Source: a virus
Taxonomy: Duplodnaviria > Heunggongvirae > Uroviricota > Caudoviricetes
IMG/VR virus record: IMGVR_UViG_3300034082_003579
Reading direction: 5' to 3' (one strand)
DNA: 64,000 bases
How positions within the stretch are numbered: the first letter of the stretch is position 1; the number at the start of each line of letters is the position of its first letter. Made by a program: the position numbers and the translations under genes. The notes under the pieces are model-generated. The model saw nothing but the letters and a program-made list of their open reading frames with translations. It made no database searches and was not told where the DNA came from. This document shows positions 13 to 41,050 of the stretch, one piece after another.

Positions 13-1134
13 ATGTGGCAAGGTGGTGGAATGCAATCCCAAGTTAAAGTAGTACTACGAAATCCGTTATCTCGTCGAGATTTAGTTGATTACACAATTG
101 AAGTACAAGATCATCTCTTGGCTAGAGACTGGAAAGTGGCATTAACTAAACTACTAGCATCCGGTAAACTGCTAGAAAAAAACTTTTGTTTTATGGGATT
201 TCCAAACACTGCAAGAACACTGCCTTATCTCTGCAGAGAATTAACCCAGGCCGTCGCTGTTATAAACTCTGAGTTCACAGACTATCAAATTACAGAAACA
301 TACACACCCGATACTGTTGTGGGTTTTGATTATGCTGAAAACGGAATCAATCATAACTTGTTAAACAAGTTACACAATCATTTTGAAGTTTTACAAGGCA
401 CAGTAGAAAATCTCAGTTCATGGTATACATGTGCCAGTTACGAAACCAAGTATGCTATACGACAACTCAATAATATTTGCCATGAAATGGAAAATCTCAT
501 ATTGAGTCAACGCAAAGCTGCCACTGCACCTTTTTGGGTTCGACCCAGTCAGATCACCACCTGGTTGTCTGCAGACCGTTACGACTTATTGCCCCAGCAT
601 CGGCAAGAATTTGTTACCAATGGATATGACCGTGTGCTTGGCGGGGTCTACATGCACTGGACACAGATAGGTAAAACTTTATTTGAAGTATTTAGAGACG
701 AAGGTGCACCAGTGTTGACAGATACTGTATGCAAAGCTATCACGCATCTAAGATATTACTCTGGAGAATTTGATGTAGAATGGGGCAATGACGTTGTGTA
801 TGGTGGACAAAGACCATGGCATGATCAAGAGCAAGATCGATTTCGTGCCTGGCTTGTTGACAACAATAGGGATCCTACTGATCCGAATCTGAGCCTAGGG
901 TACTTGCCCATAGCACAAGTTCTGTTGCAACAGAGTTTTGGAACAACTGATGCCCAAGAGATTTGGAATATCCTGGGTTCGCACTTAGATATATACAGTA
1001 TAGAAGTCAACGGGGTTACTCAGACATTTGATTATTGTTGGACTGACAGCAATTATAAACAACAACAAATCAATCGACTGAAACCCGGATACGACTATTC
1101 GGGCCAACAAGGAGAACACCATGCGCTGGATTAA
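13..1134 (+). CDS. hypothetical protein
   Basis: 373-aa ORF with no recognisable motif; first gene of the + strand block. Confidence 0.45.
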   Translation: MWQGGGMQSQVKVVLRNPLSRRDLVDYTIEVQDHLLARDWKVALTKLLASGKLLEKNFCFMGFPNTARTLPYLCRELTQAVAVINSEFTDYQITETYTPDTVVGFDYAENGINHNLLNKLHNHFEVLQGTVENLSSWYTCASYETKYAIRQLNNICHEMENLILSQRKAATAPFWVRPSQITTWLSADRYDLLPQHRQEFVTNGYDRVLGGVYMHWTQIGKTLFEVFRDEGAPVLTDTVCKAITHLRYYSGEFDVEWGNDVVYGGQRPWHDQEQDRFRAWLVDNNRDPTDPNLSLGYLPIAQVLLQQSFGTTDAQEIWNILGSHLDIYSIEVNGVTQTFDYCWTDSNYKQQQINRLKPGYDYSGQQGEHHALD

Positions 1135-1218: not shown

Positions 1219-2709
1219 ATGAAACATATATTGGGCGTCAGTGCCGGCTTCCACGATGCTGCGGTCAGCTTAATTGATGATCGCGGCCGTATTGTGTTTG
1301 CAGGTCACAGTGAACGATACAGCAAACGAAAGAATGACGCAGATATATGCCACGGCCTAGTCGCCGAGATACGCGACTATGACATAGACACTATTGCATG
1401 GTACGAAAGACCCTGGCTAAAACAGTCACGGCAATTGTACAGTGGGCAAGGTGTTGATTGGAACCGAATTACACTTAATCAAAATATTCAATACCAATTG
1501 TCGCCTTGGCTGCATCAACGTCCTGGTCGTGCAGTCAGTTATAATCATCACCTAAGTCATGCTGCTGCTGGATTTCAAACCAGTTCCTACACACGAGCAA
1601 CTGTTGTGGTTATTGACGCAATAGGAGAATGGGATACCATAAGTATTTGGGGAGCAGAATATGATCAAAAGAATCGTGCAGTATATAAAAAGCTGTGGGG
1701 ACAACGATACCCCCACTCAATCGGACTGTTTTATAGTGGAATTACTAGCCGCATTGGCCTACACCCACTAGACGAAGAATACATTACCATGGGCATGGCC
1801 GGCTGGGGTCGTGCTGTCTGGATTGATCGCATGCGGCAGGACTTAGTAGCCGATTCGGACGAAGTAAGATTTACTCAGAATTTGCATGCTGGCATCGATG
1901 ATAAATGGTTAGAATCAGCTGACAACAACGACATTGCCAGCACCGCGCAGGAACTGGCAGAACAATTAATTTACAATGTAATGAAACGTGCTCGTGCATT
2001 TAACTGGAGCAAGAACTTAGTATACATGGGCGGAGTGGCACTCAACTGCTTGGCCAATCGAAACTTGGGAGAATACTTTGATCACATTTGGATTATGCCT
2101 TGTCCCGGTGATGCTGGTAGTAGTCTTGGTGCTGCCGCTTTGGCTTTTGGTGGTCGTATTGACTGGCAGCATCCCTATCTGGGCCATGTTATACCTGGCC
2201 AGTATCCTGTCGATGCCGTTGTTGATCACCTGCTCACTGATCGTATCGTTGGCGTGGCCAGCGGCGCTGCCGAATTTGGACCGCGAGCTCTAGGTAATAG
2301 AAGTTTATTGGCTGATCCACGCGGACCCGATATCAAGGATCGAGTAAATGAAATCAAACGAAGACAAAAATTTAGACCCTTTGCCCCTGTCATCTTGGAA
2401 GAGCATGCTGATCAATACTTTGATCTTCCTCGTGGTTTCGGTAGTAGCCCTTATATGCAATCTGTCGCCCGCTGCTTGGCTCCTGAGTTGTATCCTGCTA
2501 TTGTGCATGTGGATGGCACTAGTAGAGTTCAAACAGTGGCTCCGGACTTGGCGTCAGGGATCAGACAACTGCTAGAAGCCTGGTACGCACGCACTGGTTG
2601 CCCCATGCTACTAAACACCAGTTTAAACATCAGAAGCGAACCCATGGTCAATGATCGAGCAGACGCTGACAGATTTGAAATTTTATACAATGTAAAGGTA
2701 TGTTCATAA
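1219..2709 (+). CDS. carbamoyltransferase (NodU/CmcH family)
   Basis: 496 aa; N-terminal GVSAGFHDAAVSL block and overall Kae1/YgjD-like layout typical of O-/N-carbamoyltransferases. Confidence 0.75.
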   Translation: MKHILGVSAGFHDAAVSLIDDRGRIVFAGHSERYSKRKNDADICHGLVAEIRDYDIDTIAWYERPWLKQSRQLYSGQGVDWNRITLNQNIQYQLSPWLHQRPGRAVSYNHHLSHAAAGFQTSSYTRATVVVIDAIGEWDTISIWGAEYDQKNRAVYKKLWGQRYPHSIGLFYSGITSRIGLHPLDEEYITMGMAGWGRAVWIDRMRQDLVADSDEVRFTQNLHAGIDDKWLESADNNDIASTAQELAEQLIYNVMKRARAFNWSKNLVYMGGVALNCLANRNLGEYFDHIWIMPCPGDAGSSLGAAALAFGGRIDWQHPYLGHVIPGQYPVDAVVDHLLTDRIVGVASGAAEFGPRALGNRSLLADPRGPDIKDRVNEIKRRQKFRPFAPVILEEHADQYFDLPRGFGSSPYMQSVARCLAPELYPAIVHVDGTSRVQTVAPDLASGIRQLLEAWYARTGCPMLLNTSLNIRSEPMVNDRADADRFEILYNVKVCS

Positions 2710-2710
2710 T

Positions 2711-3829
2711 ATGATAGTAGATTATATTCCTGATTTGGATCCAAAAATGCACTACATCAGGTATGCTGATCTAATAGATCAGCATCCGTTGCCTTGCATT
2801 TTACTGGATTTTAATCGTCCACAATTCAATTTTAATATCACTCAGGGGATAGACGCACTGTTGATTGAAAAGTATTCAAAGTTTCAAAAGAATCCTCCGC
2901 TGCTGATTATTCACAGTATCAACGAATCTCCTACGATTGATCGTTTTTCATTCTTACCGGCATTAAAATCATTACATCCTGGGTTGAAAATTCTTCATTT
3001 AACAACAGGTTGGGAATCACCACAGGCTGATTATACCACAATAACTGATTGTAATACATTTTTTTGGCATATCCATAACCAGTGGAAAGACTCATTTTCT
3101 TATCAAGCAACTCATCATTTTGTTGCCTTAGCTAGAATTCCGCGATTCAGTCGCACACGAGTGATTAATTCTATCTTAAACAGAAACTTGCAACATTTGG
3201 GATATTTTAGCATTGGTGCAGCAGCCGAATGTGACAATAGCAATGAATTTTTTTTAAGAAATCATACAGCCTTAGGTATTGACGAGAAAAATCTAAAATA
3301 TTTTCCTTGCTTTGTTGACGGGATTGTTGATCTAAAATCAAAACTTGCTGACAAACAATCTTTTTGTAAGTCATCTACTATAACCAATGACAAAATAAAA
3401 AATGCCTTGGTAAATGTAGTATTAGAGTCTGGATTTGAATATTCATCTGCTGTGCCCGCAGACTGGAGTTGGACCGTACCCATGCTCACTGAAAAAACAG
3501 TAAAAGCATTTGTACTTGGTCAGATTCCAATGATATTGGGACCACGTGGCCAGGTTGAAAAAACAAGACAGCAAGGTTTTGATTTATTTGACGAATTAAT
3601 TGATCATGGCTACGACAACGAACCTGACCCATTGTTACGAATAGAACAATTTGTCAGCAGCCTTGAGAAATTTATCAATCGTGTCCCATCAAATACTTTG
3701 CAAGATCTTAAAGAATCATTGATGCCAAGATTTATGTTCAATCGAGAACTTGCAAAAAAAATGTCGGACTGTGATATAAGTGTTGAGATAACAAAATTTT
3801 TAGACAGTTTGCAGCTTGAAAATTTATGA
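2711..3829 (+). CDS. hypothetical protein
   Basis: 372-aa ORF starting 2 nt after the upstream stop (translational coupling); no motif recognised. Confidence 0.45.
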   Translation: MIVDYIPDLDPKMHYIRYADLIDQHPLPCILLDFNRPQFNFNITQGIDALLIEKYSKFQKNPPLLIIHSINESPTIDRFSFLPALKSLHPGLKILHLTTGWESPQADYTTITDCNTFFWHIHNQWKDSFSYQATHHFVALARIPRFSRTRVINSILNRNLQHLGYFSIGAAAECDNSNEFFLRNHTALGIDEKNLKYFPCFVDGIVDLKSKLADKQSFCKSSTITNDKIKNALVNVVLESGFEYSSAVPADWSWTVPMLTEKTVKAFVLGQIPMILGPRGQVEKTRQQGFDLFDELIDHGYDNEPDPLLRIEQFVSSLEKFINRVPSNTLQDLKESLMPRFMFNRELAKKMSDCDISVEITKFLDSLQLENL

Positions 3830-3961
3830 AAAATATAATTGTTTTAGAGAGAGAGTTTTTGATTATCAGAGTTACAGTGATCTAATTTTGAGTATACCAT
3901 TGTTTTAATCAATAAAATAATTAAACTCATAGTTGACAAGTATGTTTAATAGGAAAGTATA

Positions 3962-5380
3962 ATGGATATCAAAGCAATGAAACAATGGAAGATTGAAAAC
4001 TTAGACAGTAAAAGTCCAAGTTTTTGTGGATCTAAATGGTACAACGCCAGCCTGTGGCTAGGTCAAGGCTGGACTACTAGTTGTCACCATAACCCTCCGC
4101 ATGCAATAGATCTCGAAGCAATCAAAACCAATCCTCGGGCCCTGCACAACACTCCGATTAAAAAACAAGAACGCAAGATGATGCAGGAAGGAAAAAAACC
4201 AAAAAATTGCCAATTTTGTTGGGTTATGGAAGAAGTTGATCCCAATGGCCTTGCCGACAGAACATGGACCTCTTGGGGCGGCCAAATGAGCAAACAACAG
4301 CTGGATAATGCATTTACTCAAAGCTGGGATGTTGACTATGATCTTACCTATTTAGAAATAGTGTTTGACAGAACCTGTAATCTGGCTTGTAGTTATTGTG
4401 CACCTACTATCAGCACTACCTGGGCCAAGGATATTAGAAAAAACGGGCCTTATTTAAATTTGCCAACAGATCATCGCAACCACTACATTGATACAGGCGA
4501 TAGTTTTATCAAATACAACTACGGAGATCAAAATCCTTATGCAGACGCATTTTTTCGTTGGTGGGAAGAAAGTTTGCACAAAACTATAAAACAGATTCGT
4601 ATATCAGGCGGCGAACCAATGATGTCTGGGCATACGTGGAAGTTGCTGTCTTGGCTGGCCGACAATGCCGGCAAAGCTGATTGCAGAATTGAGATGACCA
4701 CAAATCTGGCTTACGATCAAGATACGTTAAAACGTTTTTTAGACATGTGTAGTCGAATTAGTGTGCCTGTATGGGTGTACACCAGCGCAGAAAGCACTGG
4801 ACAAAAAATGGAATATGTAAGAGACGGCATCGATTGGGATCTATGGCATAGCAATCTAGATATGGTTCTCAACAGTGGGGTAGTTGCCAACACTGGAATT
4901 TGCGGTACATTGAGTGCCATCAGTGCCGACGGATTTGTAGATTTTCTTTACTGGTTATTGGAACGTAAAAAAACTGCACCTGCAAATTCCAACGGAACAA
5001 CCAGTCTTATGTTGAGTGTGAATCCTGTGCGATTTCCCAGCTTTCAGAACATAGTTGTATTACCAAACGAAATGAGGCAAAAGTACAGCAAAGATATACA
5101 GGAATTTTTAAACATAGACAATTTAAATAAATGGTTTTTGCCTATCGAAATTGATCACATTGATCGCTTTGCCAAGTATTTGAGTACTGTAGAAATTCCG
5201 CACCAAGAAAAACAAATACAACACGGATCTGCTGTATATGATCAAAAAGATCCAGCTCAAGATACAAAATTACTGGAAAAAGATTTTCGTAGTTTTTTTG
5301 ATCAATATGATCAACGTAGAGGTAAAAACTTTATAAATACTTTTCCTAATCTTGCAGAATGGTATCAATCAATAAAATGA
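3962..5380 (+). CDS. radical SAM domain protein
   Basis: CNLACSYC = CxxxCxxC cluster-binding motif; paralogous to the 45918..47033 ORF (CNLACRSC). Confidence 0.65.
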   Translation: MDIKAMKQWKIENLDSKSPSFCGSKWYNASLWLGQGWTTSCHHNPPHAIDLEAIKTNPRALHNTPIKKQERKMMQEGKKPKNCQFCWVMEEVDPNGLADRTWTSWGGQMSKQQLDNAFTQSWDVDYDLTYLEIVFDRTCNLACSYCAPTISTTWAKDIRKNGPYLNLPTDHRNHYIDTGDSFIKYNYGDQNPYADAFFRWWEESLHKTIKQIRISGGEPMMSGHTWKLLSWLADNAGKADCRIEMTTNLAYDQDTLKRFLDMCSRISVPVWVYTSAESTGQKMEYVRDGIDWDLWHSNLDMVLNSGVVANTGICGTLSAISADGFVDFLYWLLERKKTAPANSNGTTSLMLSVNPVRFPSFQNIVVLPNEMRQKYSKDIQEFLNIDNLNKWFLPIEIDHIDRFAKYLSTVEIPHQEKQIQHGSAVYDQKDPAQDTKLLEKDFRSFFDQYDQRRGKNFINTFPNLAEWYQSIK

Positions 5381-6153
5381 AAAAAAACATTGTTTTCGTT
5401 GGCGACAGCTATTGCAGTTCATTTAGAGGCCCAAGTCCGAACCGGCATGAGTCGAATCAACAACAACATGGTCACCCAACCTGGCTCAATGTTGCAGCAA
5501 AAGAATTGAATCTTAATCTTTACAGTTTTGGATATGCTGGGCGTAGCTGGTGGTTTAGTCGAGATCGGTTGTTTCGGCATATTCAAAAAAATCCGGACTT
5601 TGTTGAACGAATTGAAGTTATGGTATTTGTACATACTGATTACTGGAGATTTAACTCCTGCAAGTCTGAAATTGGAATGAATTTAATTTACAGCGATCCA
5701 AAACTTTTTGACTTCGAAACTCAACAACTTTCCTCTGCATTAAAAGATTGGATAAATTATCTAAGAGACGACTCCTTTCAGATTTGGGCACAAATGCAAT
5801 GGTTTGAAGAAATTAATCGTAAATTTAAATGCAGCGACTTTAAAAAAATACACTTGTTCACCCTTCCATTCAATATTGAAATCGCAGCAGGACTCGACGG
5901 AATGATAGTTGCTACACCGTTGATTCATATTTCTCTCGGAGAAGTTACCGGTACTGATTCAGAAGTGGCCGACATAACTAACGATATGAGAGCAAATCAC
6001 ATGAGTCCACACAATAACGTGGTGCTAGGGAAATACATAGTTAATGAAGTGCAAAATTACAAGCCTGGTACTATAAAACTAGACCTGTCAGATTTTGAAC
6101 GTGTAAACTTTAATGCTAGTCGTTGGCCTGAGCCGGGGTTTGGCACTAAGTAA
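5359..6153 (+). CDS. SGNH/GDSL-like hydrolase
   Basis: N-terminal IVFVGDSY block (GDS(x) motif); start overlaps the upstream gene. Confidence 0.45.
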   Translation: MVSINKMKKNIVFVGDSYCSSFRGPSPNRHESNQQQHGHPTWLNVAAKELNLNLYSFGYAGRSWWFSRDRLFRHIQKNPDFVERIEVMVFVHTDYWRFNSCKSEIGMNLIYSDPKLFDFETQQLSSALKDWINYLRDDSFQIWAQMQWFEEINRKFKCSDFKKIHLFTLPFNIEIAAGLDGMIVATPLIHISLGEVTGTDSEVADITNDMRANHMSPHNNVVLGKYIVNEVQNYKPGTIKLDLSDFERVNFNASRWPEPGFGTK

Positions 6154-6236
6154 ACTTCATCGGTGATCAGTCATTACTGCGTTGCATTTACTAGAAATTT
6201 TGAGGTGCAAGTGCAAGATTTCTTTGAAATTATAAA

Positions 6237-6977
6237 TCATTTTTTTGATAATAAATTATTGTCAATTATATAATTAAAGATATAATTTGCCCAGGCTTCC
6301 TGAGCATCTGGTTCATAGTGATACCAGCCTGGTGTAATCTCTTTGAATCCATTGTCGTGACACCAGTGTATGTAGGTTTGTGTACTGTTATACGGATGAA
6401 AATATTGTTTATTCCAATCTAGTTGATATTGTGTTTCGTTTATTCTAAAATCATGGAAGGCGTGAAAAAACAAATGCGGTATATTATGAAATTCAAAGTA
6501 CTTGTGTACATTATAAATTCGTTCATGCCAGTAATGAGACATTCCTGTTCGATAGTCGTTGTTTCTTGAGGTGCGTTCCCAATTCTCTTTGCGTAATTTA
6601 TATTCCTCTGGCGGCTGCCTCCCTACACCCAAATTATTGATTTCCCAGAATTCTGGGTAACCCTGGTCAGTAAGAAACCATTGTACTCGACAAAATTCAC
6701 TCCAGCCGATTATTACTAAATCAACATCTCGATTTTGCCTGATATACTCCATTGTAGTATCATAGATTCTGTCATTGCTACTACCACAAAGAGAAAGATT
6801 TGTTGTTCCAGTTGCTCCTAATAATTTTTCCAGGTGACTGGCTATACCTAGTGAATAATCGGTTAGCTCTTCTCCGCTCATATTGCTATCGCCGTTGAAT
6901 AATATTTTCATAGATAAGTTTCCAATCCACCACGCCGGCGGATATCTTGTGTACAGCAACTGATGCCACCGTCCCAA
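6237..6977 (-). CDS. SGNH/GDSL-like hydrolase
   Basis: KILFNGDSNMSG block near the N-terminus. Confidence 0.4.
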   Translation of the reverse strand: MGRWHQLLYTRYPPAWWIGNLSMKILFNGDSNMSGEELTDYSLGIASHLEKLLGATGTTNLSLCGSSNDRIYDTTMEYIRQNRDVDLVIIGWSEFCRVQWFLTDQGYPEFWEINNLGVGRQPPEEYKLRKENWERTSRNNDYRTGMSHYWHERIYNVHKYFEFHNIPHLFFHAFHDFRINETQYQLDWNKQYFHPYNSTQTYIHWCHDNGFKEITPGWYHYEPDAQEAWANYIFNYIIDNNLLSKK

Positions 6978-7927
6978 AAATAACTATGACGCAGTTCGCT
7001 AATGATAGGTTCGATCTTATGCTTGCGGCAAAAATCAAACACTTCTTTGTTGTAAGCACTAAAGATTACATGATTCTCGTCGAGAACCAGGCAGTTGACA
7101 TCAAAAACTGTTTCAGCTACAAATCCTGTCCATTTGCTAAGATATGTATTGACAAAGTCTGTAAATTCAGCAGTGGGAGTTTGTCCCTGCACATACCATG
7201 CTCCAGGACTTTGTTCATATTTAAATTTGCCTACTTCCATTGCTGCCCATATACTGCTATCCCAAATCTTACACACATCCCATCCTGGAAAATCTTCTGC
7301 TAAGTTCAAATTAAAATCATGCTTGCTAGAAAGAATAACGCCCGGCTTGAGAATTGCAAATACAGCATCACCGTGTCCGTCAGTAACAGCTTCGTGAATA
7401 CGATATTCGGGTGTCAGTACATTGTCCACAATCCATTGAGTTTGATCTGGTCTTAAGAAATCACTGTTGTCAAAGAAGACATCTTGTCCAACTCGTACAA
7501 TACAGCTGGCACTGGCTCCGTTGAGTATACAATCCGCGTCCCATGCACCTTTATGTGGATTGATTACTTGTCCTGGATATCGAGCACATATATTATCTAA
7601 CTCTGGCATGGCCAACACACGCAATAACTTGTTACCTAATGTGATTTGCCAATCTCTTGGAGTTAGTGGTGGCAACGGTGCTCCGCCACCTTCAGTTTGA
7701 AACCAAACAAATTGATCCTTGGATGGTAGATCCGGGCGCACTACTATTGAACCGTATTGTTCAATAGTTTTTTGTAAGTTATTGAGGTCTTCTTCGGTCT
7801 CTGACAGAATCTGCTGCAGTTGATTACGAACTTGTGCATTGTCAATGAAATCAAAGTAATCGGGACTGTAAGCACGACCCACAATGACTTCTTCAAGTGG
7901 TTGCCAGCTGGTGTAAGAATTAATCAT
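6908..7927 (-). CDS. amidinotransferase-family enzyme (AGAT/StrB-like)
   Basis: 339 aa; C-terminal GGISCCTQDIRRRG resembles the catalytic-Cys region of glycine/inosamine amidinotransferases. Confidence 0.6.
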   Translation of the reverse strand: MINSYTSWQPLEEVIVGRAYSPDYFDFIDNAQVRNQLQQILSETEEDLNNLQKTIEQYGSIVVRPDLPSKDQFVWFQTEGGGAPLPPLTPRDWQITLGNKLLRVLAMPELDNICARYPGQVINPHKGAWDADCILNGASASCIVRVGQDVFFDNSDFLRPDQTQWIVDNVLTPEYRIHEAVTDGHGDAVFAILKPGVILSSKHDFNLNLAEDFPGWDVCKIWDSSIWAAMEVGKFKYEQSPGAWYVQGQTPTAEFTDFVNTYLSKWTGFVAETVFDVNCLVLDENHVIFSAYNKEVFDFCRKHKIEPIISELRHSYFWDGGISCCTQDIRRRGGLETYL

Positions 7928-9114
7928 ATGTGTCGGAGTCTTTTAAGTAAGTTATTTAAGCGTTCATATTTACTAGCTAAAAATAATTGTTGATTATGTT
8001 CGATATCGCTGCGACAAGATTCAAACCAATTGTGCATGTCTTGCTGCTGAATCTGTAGGATTGTGTTACGACATTGTATCCATCTTTGAGTATTGTTTAT
8101 AACAGTGTCGTATGAGTTATCAATGGCATGATCAAATGTGCGATATCCTAAATTTCTCAACACAGCAAGACTACCGGGGCAACCTACAATTACAAATGGA
8201 TGCCCATGTTTTATTGCTCGGAATGTTTTTTCGGTCAAAAAGGCACCATTGGATCCATCAGCATCAAAATGTGTTTCCAATATTATACTGCAGTAGGAGT
8301 TGAGATAATGATCAGCTTGGATCATATGATGATCGTTATGTTGATCTGATGTCAATTTATCACAGCGATATGGTGTACCTGCCAAAAATTGAATTATATC
8401 TTTTCGAACATTTAAAGTATCAATCTCTATAGGGTTATTATCAATTGATTCTACCACAGAATGTTCTGTGCTGTAGCTCCAGTAAGATTTTTTCAATAGG
8501 TTGTTGCGCAGTAAATCAGTCATTACAGTAGCCCGCCACCATTTGTGTGTTCTGGACAGTACTGTAAAATTATAATCTCTTGATTCACAGTGAATAGGCA
8601 ACGACAACACGTCTTGATTTCGCTGCCAGTATAACAGTTCGTGGTCTGGAAAATAAACGAACCCAGGCACAGAATCAGCTGCTGAATTCCCACTGATTAC
8701 ACAGTAACAATTGTAAGGAATATTGTGTTGCGTACACAATGTATCTAATCGTTGTTTAATATGGTGAGGATTATCGCCTTCGTGATAGTAAAATAACACC
8801 TGCAGAGTTTGCTGACGCAATGCACCTAATACTGATAACGGCATCAAAGAAAAATAATCAACAGCAAAGTCAAAAAATCCTAACCCTACAGTGTAATAAG
8901 ATCCTGGTGGCCACCCAGAATCAACTTTGTGTAGTTGCATGGGATATTGATGCTGTTGGCAGTGTTCGTGCAGTTCTACCGGAACAGTATTTGGCCAATG
9001 CTGTACAAATTCTCGCCACCCGGGTGTGTATGGAGTTGCTTGATGCCGAGCAAGAGCTGGATAAGCCTTGTCTCTTATAATTCGATCAGCTACAAAATTA
9101 AACACGCAGTCCAT
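7924..9114 (-). CDS. hypothetical protein (possible glycosyltransferase-like)
   Basis: 396-aa ORF, translationally coupled to its neighbours; no firm motif. Confidence 0.45.
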   Translation of the reverse strand: MDCVFNFVADRIIRDKAYPALARHQATPYTPGWREFVQHWPNTVPVELHEHCQQHQYPMQLHKVDSGWPPGSYYTVGLGFFDFAVDYFSLMPLSVLGALRQQTLQVLFYYHEGDNPHHIKQRLDTLCTQHNIPYNCYCVISGNSAADSVPGFVYFPDHELLYWQRNQDVLSLPIHCESRDYNFTVLSRTHKWWRATVMTDLLRNNLLKKSYWSYSTEHSVVESIDNNPIEIDTLNVRKDIIQFLAGTPYRCDKLTSDQHNDHHMIQADHYLNSYCSIILETHFDADGSNGAFLTEKTFRAIKHGHPFVIVGCPGSLAVLRNLGYRTFDHAIDNSYDTVINNTQRWIQCRNTILQIQQQDMHNWFESCRSDIEHNQQLFLASKYERLNNLLKRLRHI

Positions 9115-10189
9115 GTAGCATTCCGGTTAATTCTTTCCATAGCACGTCTGTTAACCCACCGTTGTAAAAGTGAGCATAGTTATGCTCTACTGCAGACAAA
9201 CAGGCACGATGTATCTGTTGACGTTCTGTAACGGATAGAGTATCAAAATTCTTGAGTAAACTTACAACACGCTCGACTCTGCGTATGTCGTCAGTTTCTA
9301 AATCATAGCTTTCGTCAAACACATCTGCAAAAGTACGGAAGCCGTAGCTGCGCATGTATTCTAAGCTGCCGGCTGGTGCCATCAATACAAACGGCATTTC
9401 CAGTGCAATGGCTTTAAATGTCTTTTCGGTAATGTGCAATCTTTTTCCAAAATAAACAGTCTCAGTCGGTACATATACTAAACTGTCAGCAGCTTCGTCA
9501 AAGTTAGTAAGCCAACACGACGTCATTTGTTGTGTTGCTTCACCCGGAAACAACTTAGGTAACTCTGCTGAATCAAACACTTGCGTTATGTCTGGATACG
9601 TGTTATTATACTTGTTAGCAATCACACTTATGTCCACATTTTCGTAACTACAGGTTCTCGGAGCCGAAATCCAATTATGATCCAACTTATTCTTAAACAC
9701 ATTGTACAAAAACAAAACTCTATGATCTCGTTTGCCAGCAACTATTCTGTTTGGGCTCATAAAAGCACGGCTGGGCGCACGGTCTCGAGCACGTGGTATT
9801 AGGAAGGTTTTGTCGTATCCGCGAAACCAATCTTGACAGGCCCAACCGTGATAAAAATAGTAGTGCGCCTTCCAGCCATACTGATCGCATAACTTTTTAA
9901 CATGTTCTCCTTGTTCACTGACTATTACATGTCCTTGTGGTTTAGTCCAAATATCCTTATTGCGCTGAATCACATCATCAAACAAGGATTTGTGCAGATC
10001 TAAATGAACTGGCTCTTGATCATGAAAAAATACATAGTCATTTTCTACAACATCATCTCTGCCCAAGTTAAATAGACTATCGGGGTCACTGCGCCCAGGT
10101 GGATCACAAAAGAACATTCTTGTTCCTATCTTATTTCGGTCAATCCAGGGCCAAAAGGTATTATTATAAATCTCGTCGATTCTAATCAT
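9098..10189 (-). CDS. hypothetical protein
   Basis: 363-aa ORF overlapping the downstream gene by 17 nt. Confidence 0.45.
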   Translation of the reverse strand: MIRIDEIYNNTFWPWIDRNKIGTRMFFCDPPGRSDPDSLFNLGRDDVVENDYVFFHDQEPVHLDLHKSLFDDVIQRNKDIWTKPQGHVIVSEQGEHVKKLCDQYGWKAHYYFYHGWACQDWFRGYDKTFLIPRARDRAPSRAFMSPNRIVAGKRDHRVLFLYNVFKNKLDHNWISAPRTCSYENVDISVIANKYNNTYPDITQVFDSAELPKLFPGEATQQMTSCWLTNFDEAADSLVYVPTETVYFGKRLHITEKTFKAIALEMPFVLMAPAGSLEYMRSYGFRTFADVFDESYDLETDDIRRVERVVSLLKNFDTLSVTERQQIHRACLSAVEHNYAHFYNGGLTDVLWKELTGMLHGLRV

Positions 10190-12368
10190 GTTTGATGTAT
10201 TCTATATCGGTAAAAAACCAGGCTTGTTTGCGCATGAACGTGCAGCAGATAGTATCGAACATGCCCAGCAATTGAGTCGCACTCGATACTGTTGGGTTGT
10301 CAATTACTTATCGGACTACACAGACTGGGATTGGCTTTGGGAACCAGTGCCATGGCAAGCCAATCAACGCCATACTTGGCCTAGCCAGCATCAAAAAGAT
10401 TCCGGGACATACTTAGTTCCTAAAATGGATTACTGCGAAACACAATATCATGCTGATAGGTTTATTAAACGTTTATCAAATTGCGACAACTGGTATATTC
10501 CTGAAAATATAGATAGCTCATTTGATTTTTCTTGGCACCCGGATCCTGCTGATCCGCCTGTGACGTATTATTTCGGCACACAGTGGCAAAGAACAGGCGG
10601 CCCTGTTTTTGTCAATGGCAGTGACAATATAAAAATTATAGAATCGCCACGTGCAATTGCATTGCCAACTGCTAACAATTGGTCTGTGCTTGATTTAAGT
10701 TTTGATTATTCCTGGCACCCAGACCTGCTGGACCAAGCTTACATATATCAGTTCGGAACGCAGCATCAAAAAACAGGTGGACCTCAGTATCAAGTACCCG
10801 GGGCATCTGACATCAAGTATTGCGCCGAACCCAGATTATTAAAAACCACAGTCGATGAACATTGGAAAATACCTAACGGCCAGTTTGACGGGTTTGATTA
10901 TACATGGCATCCTGATGACACTGACGGAAAATTTATCTATCAGTTTGGAACGCAGCATCAAAAAACAGGTGGACCTCGGTATCAAGCACCCGGGGCATCT
11001 GACATCAAGTACATAGATCAAATTAAAATTAAAACAAACCGTGTGGCGTCTGCGGTATTTGAAATAGATTTCTTGGATGGTAATGCTGGACAAATTCCTG
11101 GCACTACAAAAGTTGTCAGGTATTTTGACAACTACTTAGATACTCTTAAAAGAATAGCAAAAAATGTTCAGTACGAACATGAATTTGTTTGGATATGCAG
11201 CAGCATCTGCGATTATACCGACTTTGATTTTAGCTGGCATCCAGAACAGTGGCAGGCAGGCATGCTACATGTATTCCCCAGCAACGAAGAAAAATTCGGC
11301 GACACATTTTTTATGCATGCCCCGACTTTTGCTTATCGTAGCGAACAGTGTAAGTTGTTAGATTGGTATGATTTAAATTTTGTCAAGAATCAATCAGTTC
11401 CGCGCCGTGCAATACCTGTAATACAACACTTCCAAGACTCTCATGTGGGGACAGTATCCACAGCAGAATGGTCTGGACCACTGGCAGTATTTTCAGTTGA
11501 CGGAATAGTTGATCATGTACCGACTGTGCCCATGTGGCGTGCAGAAACAAAAACCATTGTCCCACTTAGTGCCGGAGCTTCGTCTGTTGTTGTACCACGT
11601 GCTGCAATACCGTATATCAAAACACAGTTATACGATTATTCCTATATTGATAAGACAAAACAATTTCAATCTGATCGGCTGTTAGACATTGTTTTTCTCA
11701 GCAACAGCGAGCCCAATGCTGATGCCAATTGGCAACACTTGCAGACTATTACAGCAGGACGGAGCAATCGTTGTATTAGAGTCGACGGCATCAACGGACG
11801 AGGCGCAGCATACAAAGCAGCAGCCGACGCCAGCGAAACACCTTGGTTCTTTTCTGTGTTTGCCAAACTAGAAATTGATCCTGCATTTGATTTTGGTTGG
11901 CAACCAGATCGTATGCAACAGACCAAGCACTACATCTTTAATAGTAGAAATCCAGTAAATGGATTAGAGTATGGACATCAAGGCTTGATTGCGTACAACA
12001 AGAAGTTAGTGCTAGGGACCGACGAAATACGCGGTCTAGACTTTACACTAAGTCAGCCACACGGTGTAGAACCCGTACTAAGCGGAACAGCACACTTTAA
12101 TACAGATCCTTGGAGCACATGGCGTACTGCATTTAGAGAAGTTGTAAAACTGCAATACTACTACGAAACCATACCTGATGTGGAAACAGAATACAGACTA
12201 ACTACATGGCAGAAACGTGCGCAAGGCGACCATGCCGAATGGAGCTTGCGTGGTGCCAAAGATGCTGTAGAATACTATGATTCAGTGTTGGGAAATTATG
12301 ACAGCTTGTTGCTGACGTTTGAATGGGCTTGGCTAAGAGATTATTTTAATCAGCAGTACATCGTTTGA
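10188..12368 (+). CDS. large repeat-containing protein
   Basis: 726 aa with about 5 copies of a ~55-aa module (F/Y)D(F/Y)(S/T)WHPD...Y.FGTQ.Q.TGGP.Y..PG.SDIKY; two copies are near-identical at DNA level. Confidence 0.55.
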   Translation: MFDVFYIGKKPGLFAHERAADSIEHAQQLSRTRYCWVVNYLSDYTDWDWLWEPVPWQANQRHTWPSQHQKDSGTYLVPKMDYCETQYHADRFIKRLSNCDNWYIPENIDSSFDFSWHPDPADPPVTYYFGTQWQRTGGPVFVNGSDNIKIIESPRAIALPTANNWSVLDLSFDYSWHPDLLDQAYIYQFGTQHQKTGGPQYQVPGASDIKYCAEPRLLKTTVDEHWKIPNGQFDGFDYTWHPDDTDGKFIYQFGTQHQKTGGPRYQAPGASDIKYIDQIKIKTNRVASAVFEIDFLDGNAGQIPGTTKVVRYFDNYLDTLKRIAKNVQYEHEFVWICSSICDYTDFDFSWHPEQWQAGMLHVFPSNEEKFGDTFFMHAPTFAYRSEQCKLLDWYDLNFVKNQSVPRRAIPVIQHFQDSHVGTVSTAEWSGPLAVFSVDGIVDHVPTVPMWRAETKTIVPLSAGASSVVVPRAAIPYIKTQLYDYSYIDKTKQFQSDRLLDIVFLSNSEPNADANWQHLQTITAGRSNRCIRVDGINGRGAAYKAAADASETPWFFSVFAKLEIDPAFDFGWQPDRMQQTKHYIFNSRNPVNGLEYGHQGLIAYNKKLVLGTDEIRGLDFTLSQPHGVEPVLSGTAHFNTDPWSTWRTAFREVVKLQYYYETIPDVETEYRLTTWQKRAQGDHAEWSLRGAKDAVEYYDSVLGNYDSLLLTFEWAWLRDYFNQQYIV
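10749..10819 (+). repeat. 71-nt intragenic direct repeat, copy 1
   Basis: cagttcggaacgcagcatcaaaaaacaggtggacctcagtatcaagtacccggggcatctgacatcaagta; about 3 mismatches to copy 2. Confidence 0.7.
10941..11011 (+). repeat. 71-nt intragenic direct repeat, copy 2
   Basis: near-identical to 10749..10819; recent internal duplication of a protein repeat module. Confidence 0.7.
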
Positions 12369-13476
12369 CTTGAGCAGCAATGTGTTTTACTTCGCTATCA
12401 GTTAATTCAGGGTAGATAGGCAAGCTCAATACTCTGCGACTCAATGTACTAGAACAACTCAGCAACGAATTAGGCCCAGGATAACAACTGTAAATTGGTT
12501 CTTCGTGCAAAGGTCGTACATAATGTATTTTTGTTTCTATGCCGCGAGCAGCAAGATCTTGTTGCAGCTGGTGCTGATTGTCAACTTCGATGACAAATTT
12601 GTGAAAGCAATGGCTGTACATCATGTCATCGGTGATGAGAGTCTTAACTGCGGTACCTGTAAATTGTTCGTTGTAATAAGCAGCAATGTCTCGTCGTCGA
12701 TTTTGCCATTGGTGAATGTGATTGGCTTTGACCATCATTAATGCACAGTCCAATTCACTCATCCTACTGTTGGTACCAACAGTGGTGCCACCAGTCATTG
12801 AATTGCCGCGCCAATTGCGTACAAATTCTGCCAACGCACTGTCTCTTGTGACAACAGCTCCGCCATTGCCGTAGCAAGGTAAATTCTTTGTGGGATCAAA
12901 GCTGATAGCAGTAGCAGTACCAACTCGAGTACCACTGTCAGCTAACCAATGTTGAGCACCGTCTTCAATTATCAGTGTATCTCTGTATAACCAGTCTTGC
13001 CATTGTCGTTGATTGCCCATGTGTGCCACACTGGCACCGTACAAGCCCACAATAACCACAGCCTCATAATCAATCTTTTCTGGTAAACTATCAAAATTCA
13101 ACAAGCCGTATCGGTCAGTGTCGACAAATCGTATATGCCACCCTGCACGTTTGAACGCATTGGCAGTGGCTCGATAAGTCAAGGACGGGATCAATACTGT
13201 TGGTGTATAAGGAAAGTTTCGTCGGTGAAATTCAGCAATGGCCTCAAGTGCATGAGTACCCGAATGCACAGTTATTGCATAACGGCTATTGTTATATCTT
13301 GCAAGCCAAGTTTCGAACTGCTCGGTATAGCGACCATTCATCAATTGCCCCGAAGCATACACCTGAGATGCTACAGGGTCAATTTCGTTTTTTAAAGATT
13401 GATATTGACGATCAAGGCCGTTGAATGATATCATGCCTTGAGCTGCTGCTGCCAGTAAGGGGATTCTTGGAGCCAC
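12346..13476 (-). CDS. DegT/DnrJ/EryC1/StrS-family PLP-dependent sugar aminotransferase
   Basis: 376 aa; family-typical N-terminus ISFNGLDRQYQSLKNEI and overall architecture. Confidence 0.75.
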   Translation of the reverse strand: MAPRIPLLAAAAQGMISFNGLDRQYQSLKNEIDPVASQVYASGQLMNGRYTEQFETWLARYNNSRYAITVHSGTHALEAIAEFHRRNFPYTPTVLIPSLTYRATANAFKRAGWHIRFVDTDRYGLLNFDSLPEKIDYEAVVIVGLYGASVAHMGNQRQWQDWLYRDTLIIEDGAQHWLADSGTRVGTATAISFDPTKNLPCYGNGGAVVTRDSALAEFVRNWRGNSMTGGTTVGTNSRMSELDCALMMVKANHIHQWQNRRRDIAAYYNEQFTGTAVKTLITDDMMYSHCFHKFVIEVDNQHQLQQDLAARGIETKIHYVRPLHEEPIYSCYPGPNSLLSCSSTLSRRVLSLPIYPELTDSEVKHIAAQVKRCTAD

Positions 13477-14399
13477 CGATGATAAATCTCAAACCCTTCT
13501 TCCATATCCACTTGAGGATTGTATCCTAGGTCTCGTCGAGCAGCATCGATATTCAATGCGCCGCGGCTGGGAAAATCCAAGTCACGCCCTCTCACATTGA
13601 TAGAGCCACGCTTGGCAATACGAACTGCCAGTTCAGCAGCTTCCAGTAATGTCTTGCTATGGCTCTTGGTAATGTTGTAGGTCCGATTGTTAGCAACGTC
13701 TAACGTGACAGCAGCCGCAATGCCGTCAGCAGCATCGTCGACATAGGTAAAGTCTAAGGTTTCGTTTGCTCCGTTGACGTTGAGAGTTTCACCACGCATG
13801 GCAGCCAGCAAGAACTTGCTGATTACACGATCGTTCACATCTAAGGGTCCGTACACAGCACTGGGACGAATGATCACATGTGCTATGCCTGATTTTCTAG
13901 TGTAGTCTTTTACCAGCCATTCGCCTGCTAACTTTAAGATACCGTATTGCCCTTGTGGGCGGCACACAGCATCTTCGCGTACTTGATCTGCAAAGTCGCC
14001 GTAGACCATGCTGCTACTGATATAAACAAACTTCTTTACTTGATGACGGACAGACAGTTCCAACAAATTTAACAGGCCTTCGCTCATGGTCTGACTGCCC
14101 AATTGTGGATTTACATTTACAACTTTTTGTCGCGGAAAACTGGCCAAGTGAACAACAGTGTCAATTTGATTTTGTTCTATTATATTGTTCATGGCCTCAG
14201 ACACAATGTCCGTGCGATAAATCTGATTGGTGGCGATTTTCTTTTGACGTTCAGCAAACAAATAGTCAATTTCGTCCCAGGGAATAAGATCGTAGTTGGT
14301 ACAAACATCAACAATAACAACATGGTGTCCTTGTGATTCTAATCGTTGAACTACATTGTGACCGATAAGACCCAGACCGCCTGTTACTAGTATTTTCAT
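13431..14399 (-). CDS. NAD-dependent nucleotide-sugar epimerase/dehydratase
   Basis: MKILVTGGLGLIGHNVV Rossmann GxxGxxG; SDR-extended family layout. Confidence 0.75.
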   Translation of the reverse strand: MKILVTGGLGLIGHNVVQRLESQGHHVVIVDVCTNYDLIPWDEIDYLFAERQKKIATNQIYRTDIVSEAMNNIIEQNQIDTVVHLASFPRQKVVNVNPQLGSQTMSEGLLNLLELSVRHQVKKFVYISSSMVYGDFADQVREDAVCRPQGQYGILKLAGEWLVKDYTRKSGIAHVIIRPSAVYGPLDVNDRVISKFLLAAMRGETLNVNGANETLDFTYVDDAADGIAAAVTLDVANNRTYNITKSHSKTLLEAAELAVRIAKRGSINVRGRDLDFPSRGALNIDAARRDLGYNPQVDMEEGFEIYHRWLQESPYWQQQLKA

Positions 14400-14719
14400 T
14401 GGAATTTCAACTTAAAAAATAATTCGTTTTGTTCTGTTAATCTTGCTGCAATACAGTACCGATATCCATACGTGTACTGATCAACTCGACGATGCCATTG
14501 CGGCAGCTCTACACTGTGTTCCATAACCCACATACCAGCTTCGCTGTGCTGCCACGCCAGTAATGGGTCAGCAGCATAGATATCAGGATCCTCTACATCG
14601 CCTATGGAAAATTCGTGTACAATAACGGTAGATATCTTAACTGGTTTGTCGTCTACAAGTTGCCACTGAGTCTCATTGTTAACAACGGCGTAGGTAGGAA
14701 ACTGCTTGATACGAGCCAT
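14396..14719 (-). CDS. hypothetical protein (C-terminus ELFFKLKFQ, related to the small-ORF family)
   Basis: 107-aa ORF, translationally coupled. Confidence 0.4.
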   Translation of the reverse strand: MARIKQFPTYAVVNNETQWQLVDDKPVKISTVIVHEFSIGDVEDPDIYAADPLLAWQHSEAGMWVMEHSVELPQWHRRVDQYTYGYRYCIAARLTEQNELFFKLKFQ

Positions 14720-14746: not shown

Positions 14747-15433
14747 TTATTCTACTGAAACAAGTTTTGCAGCCATGGGGAAAATCTCCGAAATGACCTG
14801 AGCACATGCCAGTGCAACCAATTGATGTTCCTTCTGTGTGCCATTTGCACTGCGCAATTCGATAAAATGAATCCAGGATCGTAAAGAACCATTCATGTAC
14901 AATCGACTCACTGTGTTACCTTCAGGCAATACTGCACGGGCCTGTTCTTTGGCAATGCCGTTTCGAACAGCCCAGGTATAAGCTTCTCGAGCAGCTCTAA
15001 TCACATCCTGTTGTTTCTCTATCCAAATTCGATTGGTTTCCCGATTGCCAGCATCAGTTAAATCTAGCTCAACACTGTTCTGTCTGTTTTTGGTGTCTTG
15101 CATACGTGCTTCACGAATTTCAAAATCCAAGTCCTTGGTCGGATCAGCATAACGCTGACTGAACTCTTGAAAAGCAAAGCTGCGATGTCGCAAGATTTGG
15201 CGAGCAATATCACGTGTGGTTGTGATTTCGACACAGGCCGAAACCATTTCCAAGGGCGACCAATGAGCATGTTTGACCAGGTAATTGATCAGTTTTTCGC
15301 TGGTTTCGGTGTTGAGTTGATTTGAAGGATTGCTGACACGGGCACAAAATGCAATAAGTTCTTGCACGTTGTCGATCCCGGCGTCAGCAAACTCAGCTGT
15401 GGGAGCCGAGCTTGAGACTAGACGTACTTGCAT
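14747..15433 (-). CDS. thyX: flavin-dependent thymidylate synthase ThyX
   Basis: ILRHRSFAFQEFSQRY = ThyX RHRxxxxxxxS signature. Confidence 0.85.
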   Translation of the reverse strand: MQVRLVSSSAPTAEFADAGIDNVQELIAFCARVSNPSNQLNTETSEKLINYLVKHAHWSPLEMVSACVEITTTRDIARQILRHRSFAFQEFSQRYADPTKDLDFEIREARMQDTKNRQNSVELDLTDAGNRETNRIWIEKQQDVIRAAREAYTWAVRNGIAKEQARAVLPEGNTVSRLYMNGSLRSWIHFIELRSANGTQKEHQLVALACAQVISEIFPMAAKLVSVE

Positions 15434-15735
15434 TAAATTCCTTTAAGTAGTTTGTCGGTTTCGGGTTGAATAATTTCGGCCACTGCTTCAACATCCAGCA
15501 CCAGTTCCATTGAAGCAATTAAGCCATCGTTCTCACTGATATAAACCGATACAGCTTGTTCGATACTGTCGTTGTTGAATCCTTGCTTGCGCAGTTGACG
15601 CAGGTTGATGGTTTTTTGTTTACGATCGGTAGTTTTAAAAACTACCTTCTTGACACATTCTATTGGACAGTGATTTTTGTCAACGTCGTTAACAATTTGT
15701 TCCCATCTTTGTAAAAAGTCTCGATCAAGCTGCAT
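15433..15735 (-). CDS. hypothetical protein
   Basis: 100-aa ORF, coupled to thyX. Confidence 0.4.
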   Translation of the reverse strand: MQLDRDFLQRWEQIVNDVDKNHCPIECVKKVVFKTTDRKQKTINLRQLRKQGFNNDSIEQAVSVYISENDGLIASMELVLDVEAVAEIIQPETDKLLKGI

Positions 15736-16528
15736 CAGCAGTTTTCACCTTCTTCTGCCGTCCACGTTTGGGTTTTGGTGCTCCGCCAGCCATGGCTTCG
15801 GCCTCGGCCTTGAGTCTGGCACTTTCAGCCAACAATCCACGAGCTTCGACTTCCATACGAGTGGCCTGTGCCATTCGATCCTTTGCCAAATGTGCATCGT
15901 CTAGTGCCTTGGCAGCATCTGACCCTGCTACTTCGGCCATGCGTTGTGGAACTGGAGCACCAACTTCGCGACCGTAATCATCACGACGTCTAGCTTTGCC
16001 GGTGTAACCTTTGTTGGCATCGAGATTGGCCATTTCTTGAATAGCTTCGTTTCCCATTTTCATCTTGCGAATGATCTCATTCATCTCTGCCAGATTAACA
16101 GAGCTGCTGGGTGTAGGAGTAACTGTGACTTGTTTGGCCTGTACTTTTTTAATCATTCCTTCTGAGTGCAAGGTCTGTAGCATGGGACGACCGTCCGGCA
16201 GTAGACTACGGAATAGCGCATCTCCAAGATTTTCTGCAGCCTGCCCTTCAGGAGATTCGATCACTCGCATGATAGCATCGTGCATGTGTACAGCCAATGT
16301 CTGAGGATAGATGACCAAGGTCATGTGGTCTTCGCCGGGTACTTCTCTAAATATAATAGCAACCTTTCGATCGCCGTGTTTGCCAATGTGCTTGATCATT
16401 CTGCTTCTCCTGGTTGAGATTGAGCTGCTTCTGCTTGTGCAACAACTGTTTCTAAAAATCCTGTGAGCTTTTCGTAAAGCTCGCCCACTGTACGCATTTC
16501 CTCTGCACGGAATGCACCGCGCTGGCAA
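15725..16528 (-). CDS. hypothetical protein with Lys/Arg-rich C-terminus
   Basis: 267-aa ORF; C-terminal GAPKPKRGRQKKVK. Confidence 0.45.
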   Translation of the reverse strand: MPARCIPCRGNAYSGRALRKAHRIFRNSCCTSRSSSISTRRSRMIKHIGKHGDRKVAIIFREVPGEDHMTLVIYPQTLAVHMHDAIMRVIESPEGQAAENLGDALFRSLLPDGRPMLQTLHSEGMIKKVQAKQVTVTPTPSSSVNLAEMNEIIRKMKMGNEAIQEMANLDANKGYTGKARRRDDYGREVGAPVPQRMAEVAGSDAAKALDDAHLAKDRMAQATRMEVEARGLLAESARLKAEAEAMAGGAPKPKRGRQKKVKTADAA

Positions 16529-16611: not shown

Positions 16612-16675
16612 ATAATTACCGTGGAAAATAAAAATTGCCCTGTTTTCAGGGCAATTTATATTGATTTAGGTTAAA

Positions 16676-41046: not shown

Positions 41047-41050
41047 AAAA

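Follow-up and report, generated by a model that had tools for sequence, protein, structure and literature searches.

A stretch of 64,000 nucleotides of viral DNA (IMG/VR record IMGVR_UViG_3300034082_003579, Caudoviricetes; hereafter the window) raises the question of what a phage makes with genes for an O-carbamoyltransferase, an amidinotransferase, a sugar aminotransferase, an epimerase-type oxidoreductase, a radical S-adenosylmethionine (SAM) enzyme, and several glycosyltransferase-like proteins, which lie side by side at positions 1219–14399. These genes make up the larger part of a core block of about 25 kb in a family of uncultured freshwater jumbo phages with genomes of about 320–365 kb, and this sugar-decoration block is found in every member examined. 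With moderate confidence, the block is interpreted as a set of soluble enzymes that modify a nucleotide sugar in the cytoplasm and attach the glycan to a macromolecule. The limits 1219–14399 set by the original prediction proved too narrow, as the conserved block also includes the open reading frame (ORF) at 13–1134 and the operon as far as 16528, and about 10 kb more precedes the start of the window, as seen in metagenome contigs with identical protein copies.

One possible answer is that the genes are not viral at all, but bacterial O-antigen or capsule DNA, either prophage-adjacent or mis-assembled. Genes for DegT aminotransferases, short-chain dehydrogenases/reductases (SDR), glycosyltransferases, and carbamoyltransferases are typical of such islands, and some close homologues occur in metagenome-assembled genomes (MAGs) labelled Legionellales, Haliscomenobacter, and similar. 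The distribution of the block speaks against this. Conservation was counted using tblastn in 55 IMG/VR loci with at least 20 kb around the GT-B glycosyltransferase-like gene (see following). All of them contain the carbamoyltransferase, the amidinotransferase, two GT-B proteins, the GT-A-like protein, the SDR, two radical SAM enzymes, and conserved proteins of 107 and 373 amino acids (aa), whereas the presence of the GT-B-like copy at 2711–3829, of both SGNH-like ORFs, and of certain radical SAM copies varies between loci. This core set is syntenic in the 55 viral loci, and no syntenic bacterial neighbors were found. The GT-B family is present on at least 540 IMG/VR stretches, many of them on contigs of 317–364 kb, and gene order is retained at 60%–65% identity on a contig of 346,856 bp. 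The window itself is phage-like, with 28 tRNA genes, a tmRNA, and a lysis pair consisting of a holin with three transmembrane segments beside a peptidoglycan-binding protein, and Wzx, Wzy, and ABC transporters are absent from the block.

The homologues in MAGs point in the same direction. Six contigs (L014, L016-L019, and L030) with homologues of the block are labelled as Legionellales, Haliscomenobacter, Rickettsiales, Verrucomicrobia, or Betaproteobacteria, and the two from Haliscomenobacter have carbamoyltransferases 66%–69% identical and GT-B proteins 46%–51% identical to the ones of the window. Each of the six contains the phage block together with several radical SAM copies, and all appear to be phage contigs that were placed in bacterial MAGs by faulty binning. 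Among isolate phages, megablast with the first 15 kb gave no match. In protein comparisons, the nearest cultured relative is RsoM2USA, a Ralstonia jumbo phage of 343.8 kb, whose carbamoyltransferase is 45% identical and which carries part of the module: a radical SAM enzyme, the carbamoyltransferase, and three DUF6071-related genes. Given the synteny of the core set in viral loci and the large viral contigs, a host O-antigen island was rejected as extremely improbable, and the original prediction was right to regard the genes as phage cargo.

The tailoring enzymes had also been named correctly, starting with the carbamoyltransferase of the NodU/CmcH/TobZ type (1219–2709, plus strand; all 55 loci, median identity 68%). 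It matches the Pfam families Carbam_trans_N (E = 2e-32, 113 bits for a cut-off of 24) and Carbam_trans_C (E = 4e-49, 167 bits for a cut-off of 27), both over nearly their full length, and has the two domains of the class, one Kae1/ASKHA-like at the N-terminus and one YrdC-like at the C-terminus. Its relatives in the PDB are NovN, GdmN, and TobZ (down to 1e-48), and among phage families it belongs with phrog_1601 (7.5e-88). The translation contains NHHLSHAA, which fits the metal-binding HHxxH motif of TobZ-type enzymes. The predicted reaction is the O-carbamoylation of a hydroxyl group on a sugar, dependent on carbamoyl phosphate and ATP.

The amidinotransferase (6908–7927, minus strand, 339 aa) is of the AGAT/StrB1/SxtG/HsvA type. 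With phmmer against the PDB, it matches human AGAT (3.9e-14), SxtG (4.5e-9), StrB1 (5.7e-9), and HsvA (3.6e-8) in alignments made of three collinear segments. The catalytic residues are aligned: the cysteine of GGISCCT with that of GGFHCWT (Cys407 of AGAT), and the histidine of GHGDA with that of HIDA (His303); the position of the triad aspartate falls just beyond the aligned segment. No Pfam or NCBIfam family was found at E ≤ 0.01–0.1, and the only family hit is to phrog_25854, a PHROG with no assigned function. No other protein of the block is as well conserved: it is present in 55/55 loci, with a median identity of 85%.

The two remaining sugar enzymes lie on the minus strand. The pyridoxal 5′-phosphate (PLP)-dependent sugar aminotransferase of the DegT/DnrJ/EryC1/StrS family (12346–13476; 51 of the 55 loci) matches PF01041 with 210.5 bits (cut-off 19.8, E = 6e-62) and shows the SFDPTK motif with the PLP-binding lysine. 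It stays below every equivalog cut-off of NCBIfam; its best PDB matches are Gln:scyllo-inositol transaminase (1e-46), then the 3-aminotransferases DesV, QdtB, and WbpE. The extended SDR (13431–14399; present in every locus) is of the nucleotide-sugar epimerase/oxidoreductase type, with Pfam Epimerase at 7e-43, the UDP-glucuronic acid 4-epimerase 6zl6 as best PDB match (1e-25), and the motifs GGLGLIG (GxxGxxG), SSSMVYG, and YGILK (YxxxK). The Asp-Glu pair that follows the catalytic threonine in RmlB-type NDP-hexose 4,6-dehydratases (TDEVYG) is replaced in its sequence by SSSMVYG, which resembles the epimerase/decarboxylase type. For both proteins the similarities are generic, at about 30% identity.

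The radical SAM enzyme (3962–5380, plus strand, 472 aa) has an N-terminal twitch domain and matches NCBIfam NF033640, “N_Twi_rSAM,” with 271.5 bits for a curated cut-off of 170. Its CNLACSYC motif (CX3CX2C, residues 139–146) has C139, C143, and C146 invariant in eight radical SAM paralogues, and it is 38% identical to RsoM2USA_202. Five NF033640 paralogues of 451, 442, 568, 405, and 406 aa (253–399 bits) are found to the left of the window, so that the full block contains six. Across the family there are three to six per block, of which two are kept in all 55 loci while some copies vary. The profile of these proteins matches viperin, MoaA, and BlsE, enzymes that act on nucleotides or sugars, and the N-terminus resembles the twitch domain of BtrN weakly and without significance (E = 0.007).

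Outside phages, NF033640 genes are nearly confined to Bdellovibrionota (Bdellovibrio, Bacteriovorax, Halobacteriovorax; L020-L090), where they are often multicopy and frequently located beside a carbamoyltransferase. The loci were scanned with a four-sequence alignment of the radical SAM family, an eight-sequence one being too diverse. One of them was annotated, on a 258-kb Bacteriovoracaceae contig (L078), and its order is GT4, two proteins of no assigned family, carbamoyltransferase, GT4, DegT, N_Twi_rSAM, and radical SAM/SPASM. The combination of enzymes is thus found again in a cellular cluster of the glycan type, a point in favor of sugar chemistry. There are also differences, as the transferases of the Bacteriovoracaceae locus are ordinary GT4 enzymes and neither an amidinotransferase nor a GT-A repeat protein was detected in the Bdellovibrionota clusters. 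The unknown proteins of this locus showed a probability below 1% in hhalign comparisons with the GT-B and GT-A families of the phages. Predatory Bdellovibrionota and jumbo phages have the NF033640 family in common.

The proteins at 7924–10189 had been suspected of being glycosyltransferases, and the ORFs indeed model as GT-B enzymes. They are a GT-B-fold glycosyltransferase-like protein of 396 aa (7924–9114, minus strand) and a paralogue of 363 aa (9098–10189, minus strand; 54% identity across the loci), both present in all the loci. A third copy of 372 aa (2711–3829, plus strand) is lineage-variable and was found in 13 of the 55 loci, and a fourth of 379 aa lies to the left of the window. The three copies within the window are paralogues that have a C-terminal LTEKTxKA...G(F/Y)RTF..D.SYD region in common; its TEK motif can be likened to a motif of GT10 fucosyltransferases. 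The AlphaFold model of the protein at 7924–9114, built with 37 sequences, has a predicted local distance difference test (pLDDT) value of 87 and shows the two Rossmann domains of the GT-B fold. The top structures are T4 β-glucosyltransferase (Z = 13.1), α-glucosyltransferase (12.0), FucT of Helicobacter pylori (11.7), and EXTL3 (11.6), so that the Z margin of the T4 match over FucT and EXTL3 is small. Foldseek lists GT-B enzymes (UGT, SenB, TreT, PglA) with weak E-values, and T4 β-glucosyltransferase is not near the top. On this model we conclude that the protein is a putative GT-B enzyme with no robust affinity to DNA glucosyltransferases. Searches of Pfam, PHROG, NCBIfam, CAZy, and the PDB at the sequence level gave no match for the GT-B proteins, ten distant members of the family also lack any Pfam domain, and tblastn against isolate phages found nothing. 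The family is large, with 2,758 matches at 90% clustering and 12,067 representatives at 50% clustering, many of which are tandem two-copy.

The other transferase candidate is a multi-domain GT-A-like protein of 726 aa (10188–12368, plus strand; 55/55 loci) with β repeats of about 65 aa in variable number. Its relatives (P0121-P0240) range from about 660 to 1,270 aa by gain and loss of this repeat, from 2 to 10 or more copies, and a FDFxW.PD motif also trails each Rossmann-like subdomain. The family has about 3,800 members. In isolate phages, neither the GT-B nor the GT-A family was matched, apart from a partial GT-A match in RsoM2USA.

Because glucosyltransferases of phage T4 act on DNA, the structural matches raise again an idea of the original prediction, DNA hypermodification: the transferases would glycosylate a modified base with an amino, guanidino, or carbamoyl sugar supplied by the tailoring enzymes, shielding the genome from host nucleases. 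If true, this would be a new genome-wide class of DNA modification across a whole family of phages of about 350 kb. The thymidylate synthase gene thyX is a conserved neighbor of the block with the same orientation (51 of the 55 loci), all enzymes of the block are soluble, and its universal conservation is as expected of a genome-wide modification. Phage clusters that glycosylate 5-hydroxymethylcytosine with glycosyltransferases and sugar epimerases are documented (5mYOX/ThyS clusters; bioRxiv 10.1101/2023.12.21.572611), and phage DNA glycosylation by such clusters and by the T4 α- and β-glucosyltransferases resembles the present block in its soluble GT-B and GT-A enzymes, a sugar epimerase, and an adjoining thymidylate-synthase-type gene. 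That gene, however, is here ThyX and not a ThyA-type hydroxymethylase, and no such hydroxymethylase, no 5mYOX/TET protein, and no cytosine or other DNA methyltransferase was seen in the Pfam scan of the larger ORFs of the window.

The presence of ThyX (14747–15433, minus strand; Pfam Thy1 3e-43) and of a dCMP deaminase (43796–44278), which the original prediction had pointed out, was borne out, but together they indicate an ordinary supply of dTMP, and ThyX is missing from the block position in one relative. A role of ThyX itself as a hydroxymethylase was not adopted, there being no evidence for it, and we know of no precedent for such an activity. The transferases are all acidic, with net charges of −7 to −24, and five transferases with six radical SAM enzymes form a tailoring set far larger than in any known DNA pathway. 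The absence of T4 β-glucosyltransferase from the top Foldseek matches, the small Z margin, and the glycan-type Bacteriovoracaceae locus, with its genes among GT4 transferases, also count against a DNA target. Palindrome avoidance is weak and uninformative (median observed/expected ratio of 0.89 for 6-mers). Hypermodified DNA is an unlikely product of the block, and this part of the original prediction is not supported.

The absence of membrane proteins narrows the choice of acceptors further. Hydropathy profiles of the 25 block proteins contain no 19-residue window at a level typical of transmembrane segments (maximum 1.63), and all 25 are predicted to be soluble. Pfam scans of the block revealed no initiating phosphoglycosyltransferase, Wzx/Wzy, ABC transporter, or ligase family. 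As there is no membrane segment, the block should not be a lipid-carrier or periplasmic pathway, but a soluble system that glycosylates a cytoplasmic target.

The original prediction had proposed one pathway for an aminated, carbamoylated, and amidino-bearing sugar, and the enzyme set of the block supports it. What the analysis establishes is the identity and viral origin of the genes, the folds, paralogy, and solubility of their products, and the strict conservation of the block; the substrates, the order of the reactions, and the acceptor are inferred from this. The SDR, a BtrN-like twitch radical SAM enzyme, or both would oxidize a hydroxyl of a nucleotide sugar to a ketone, which the DegT protein would transaminate to an amine. 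The AGAT/StrB-like enzyme would then move an amidino group from arginine to this amine, giving a guanidino group, and the TobZ/NodU-like enzyme would O-carbamoylate a hydroxyl via carbamoyl-AMP. Lineage-specific tailoring may come from the other radical SAM paralogues and from the DUF6071/SGNH-like proteins. The two conserved GT-B proteins, with one or two variable copies, and the GT-A repeat protein would build a short glycan directly on the acceptor, presumably a macromolecule made during infection.

For this acceptor, a virion protein is tentatively favored, by analogy with the chlorovirus, mimivirus, and mycobacteriophage systems and from the strict conservation of the core. Virion glycosylation by chlorovirus PBCV-1 (A064R and others), in the mimivirus fibril, and in mycobacteriophages likewise relies on soluble virus-encoded GT-A and GT-B enzymes and on nucleotide-sugar tailoring by SDR and DegT-type proteins without a lipid carrier. 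To our knowledge, amidinotransferases, carbamoyltransferases, and multiple N-twitch radical SAM enzymes do not occur in those systems. The present system differs further in that its GT-B family has no Pfam or CAZy match and that the acceptor comes from the analogy itself. In the distant cyanophage S-SCSM2R, the homologue of the amidinotransferase (S-SCSM2R_266) was reported in the proteome of purified virions (PMC12801897).

Several points weigh against the pathway and its proposed acceptor. Because the GT-B proteins have no CAZy or Pfam link at the sequence level, it is their fold that speaks for a transferase activity. No SDR subtype stands out in the PDB comparison, and NF033640 is a family without a characterized member. 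No sugar-1-phosphate nucleotidyltransferase was recognized within the window, and neither a structural gene nor any other acceptor was identified in or beside the block. The preference for a virion protein itself draws on analogy and on that single finding from the proteome of a distant cyanophage.

The glycan might instead be destined for the surface of the host. Soluble enzymes could act at the inner face of the membrane on lipid-linked intermediates of lipopolysaccharide (LPS) or capsule, and the remodeled surface would serve superinfection exclusion or the evasion of grazing or of defenses. Consistent with this, the window contains envelope-related genes (for a porin, OmpA, CsgG, CsgF, a curlin-repeat protein, a GT4 glycosyltransferase, PstS, and TctA), carbamoyltransferase genes are common in cyanomyoviruses, which are known to carry LPS-type gene clusters, and the annotated Bdellovibrionota counterpart resembles a surface-glycan locus. 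Yet the block has no membrane protein and no initiating phosphoglycosyltransferase, flippase, polymerase, or ligase. Its GT-B and GT-A families are phage-specific and huge, and a block kept in 55 of 55 loci, with an amidinotransferase at 85% identity, is unlike the typically variable cargo by which phages manipulate hosts. Remodeling of the host surface therefore appears rather doubtful.

The enzyme set also parallels that of aminoglycoside biosynthesis, i.e., streptomycin and bluensomycin (StrB1, StsC/StrS), tobramycin (TobZ), and butirosin (BtrN/BtrS), where an amidinotransferase, an O-carbamoyltransferase, DegT enzymes, a twitch radical SAM enzyme, and glycosyltransferases are found in one cluster. 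The ketone to amine to guanidine logic proposed above is borrowed from these pathways. This suggests another product, a diffusible compound similar to an aminoglycoside or pseudo-oligosaccharide, with a guanidino- and carbamoyl-bearing aminocyclitol or sugar, that would act against competing phages or microbes or control the host. The StrB1/AGAT-like and TobZ-like enzymes, the closeness of the DegT protein to Gln:scyllo-inositol transaminase, the weakly BtrN-like twitch domain, and the lack of an evident acceptor gene would fit such a compound. In S-SCSM2R, moreover, amidinotransferases, a DegT-type protein (AHBA_syn), and a radical SAM enzyme have been annotated as “antibiotic synthesis genes” in a 2025 paper (PMC12801897). 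However, identities with the aminoglycoside enzymes are only 20%–30%, the DegT and SDR similarities are unspecific, and the twitch match is not significant. There is no cyclitol synthase (for inositol phosphate or 2-deoxy-scyllo-inosose), exporter, or self-resistance gene in the block within the window or in the 10 kb upstream. The variable repeats of the GT-A-like protein better fit the recognition of a macromolecule, and universal conservation in a jumbo phage of lytic type is not expected of a dispensable toxin. A small molecule is thus unlikely, and the product, in contrast to aminoglycosides, is probably attached to a macromolecule.

If a tailored glycan on a virion component or other macromolecule is indeed the product, widespread large freshwater phages spend about 7% of their genome on an unusual cationic, carbamoylated glycan. 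Since every member examined keeps the block, this glycan would be essential to the particle or the genome, and not an optional cargo. The block would also give a first functional context for the NF033640 radical SAM enzymes, for the GT-B-like family (about 12,000 clusters at 50%), and for the GT-A repeat family, and it links these families to unexplained clusters of predatory Bdellovibrionota. As a cultured phage with a partial module, RsoM2USA offers a way into experiments.

Cyanomyoviruses have sugar or “LPS” gene sets with Nol-like carbamoyltransferases, and amidinotransferase homologues with 30% identity beside sugar genes; the one of S-SCSM2R (S-SCSM2R_266) adjoins KdsA, KdsB, and a GT24 gene. 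In cyanophages such genes are scattered accessory cargo, whereas in the present phages they are joined in a single core block with conserved synteny. The original prediction, that an amidinotransferase plus a carbamoyltransferase is not a described phage module, therefore stands in part: carbamoyltransferases are common in cyanophages and the S-SCSM2R set has been annotated, but in the literature searched there is no description of the full enzyme combination as a conserved phage core block. Virus-encoded glycosylation and the sugar and carbamoyltransferase genes of cyanophages are already known; the assembly of an amidinotransferase, a carbamoyltransferase, a radical SAM set, Pfam-less GT-B proteins, and a GT-A repeat protein into one core block is new.

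The original prediction also counted three SGNH hydrolases in the region, which is more than can be found. One protein resembles DUF6071 and SGNH proteins, a second shows a GDS motif and nothing more, the ORF at 2711–3829 is the GT-B paralogue described above, and there is no third candidate. The DUF6071 protein (6237–6911, minus strand, 224 aa) is a candidate SGNH-like esterase or acyltransferase present in 3 of the 55 loci. Its extent follows from gene calls in metagenomes and from the 4 nt by which it overlaps the stop of the amidinotransferase gene. It scores 25.6 bits with DUF6071, just below the cut-off, and many of its relatives have precomputed DUF6071 matches. In an alignment of 21 sequences of this protein and its relatives, G7, D8, S9, and N10, then G43, S45, and N46, and finally H198 are invariant, and no aspartate of a DxxH motif was identified. 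The only hint from the PDB is a match of blocks I and II with rhamnogalacturonan acetylesterase at E = 0.9. An SGNH enzyme is thus plausible for this protein but unproven.

The DUF6071 protein is related to RsoM2USA_200, 201, and 203 (hhalign probability 88%). These are hypothetical paralogues of about 283 aa on either side of the RsoM2USA genes for the radical SAM enzyme and the carbamoyltransferase (L001 10984-14992), and they show NGCSMxYG in place of GDS, as well as GGSSNxRI and DHPLEExHK. The second protein (5359–6153, plus strand, 264 aa; 12 of the 55 loci) has an N-terminal GDS motif and is an unproven SGNH candidate, with no match to a Pfam, PHROG, or NCBIfam family or to the PDB and no relation to the DUF6071 proteins in hhalign. 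The only match to a GDSL lipase of Pfam in the window is found elsewhere, in an ORF of 139 aa (26558–26977, minus strand) with 30.2 bits for Lipase_GDSL_2, whose cut-off is 32.9.

Several conserved proteins of the block have no assigned role. The protein of 373 aa (13–1134, plus strand), the first of the plus-strand operon within the window, is present in 55/55 loci with a median identity of 39%, and neither sequence searches nor a profile of 14 sequences found a relative in Pfam, PHROG, NCBIfam, or the PDB. The 107-aa protein (14396–14719, minus strand; 55/55 loci) is coupled to the SDR gene and has no Pfam match. The same is true in Pfam of two conserved ORFs at 15433–16528 (minus strand), one of 100 aa (51/55 loci) and one of 267 aa that would have 224 aa if a later start were used (48/55 loci). 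Besides its five radical SAM paralogues and the fourth GT-B paralogue, the part of the block to the left of the window (L008 560-10035) contains two further proteins. An adenylylsulfate (APS)-kinase-like P-loop protein with a nucleotidyltransferase-like C-terminus (WHPGH) lies about 9 kb left of the window start, and the other, of 203 aa, has a PRSGT motif and is sulfotransferase-like by eye. Both hint at sulfation or sugar activation.

The translational coupling seen earlier is confirmed by overlaps of 4 nt at 6908/6911, 7924/7927, and 14396/14399. The minus-strand unit starts from the right with the 267-aa ORF, followed by the 100-aa ORF, thyX, the 107-aa ORF, the SDR, and degT, with stops and starts that overlap or nearly abut, and thyX thus shares its transcription unit with the minus-strand genes of the block. 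The right edge is marked by a bidirectional terminator-like hairpin (16632–16657) with a stem of 11 bp and a T run on both strands. Apart from it, scans for σ70 promoters and terminators gave results close to the background, and the T4 late-promoter motif TATAAATA showed neither enrichment nor placement at operon starts. The divergent genes at 9098–10189 (minus) and 10188–12368 (plus) have start codons overlapping by 2 nt (10187–10190 in the window), so that either each promoter lies within the coding sequence of its neighbor or one of the starts is wrongly placed. The protein of 9098–10189 has 339 aa in one metagenome gene call instead of 363 aa.

The remainder of the window contains further genes of host-like character, for a TctA transporter (21192–22520), a CHASE2 adenylate/guanylate cyclase (29056–31146), an SPFH/Band 7 protein (31566–32426), the GT4 glycosyltransferase (32630–33622), and a PstS-like phosphate-binding protein (34600–35610). 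Next to these, at 35683–40407 on the minus strand, are genes of the cell envelope, for a FecR-like protein, a curlin-repeat protein, CsgG, CsgF, an OmpA-family protein, and a porin of Gram-negative type (Porin_4). It is unusual for a phage genome to encode a curli secretion set together with a porin. The tmRNA (tag ANEDSFVAERLAA) and then the 28 tRNA genes occupy 40479–56351 on the minus strand, interspersed with protein genes. The region that follows the curli set also includes an RNA polymerase ω/Rpb6-like protein (41051–41512), another radical SAM enzyme (45918–47033), the holin and peptidoglycan-binding lysis pair (48444–50005), an SNase-like nuclease (50902–51342), a GroEL/Cpn60 chaperonin (58240–59862), and a heme oxygenase (61521–62072).

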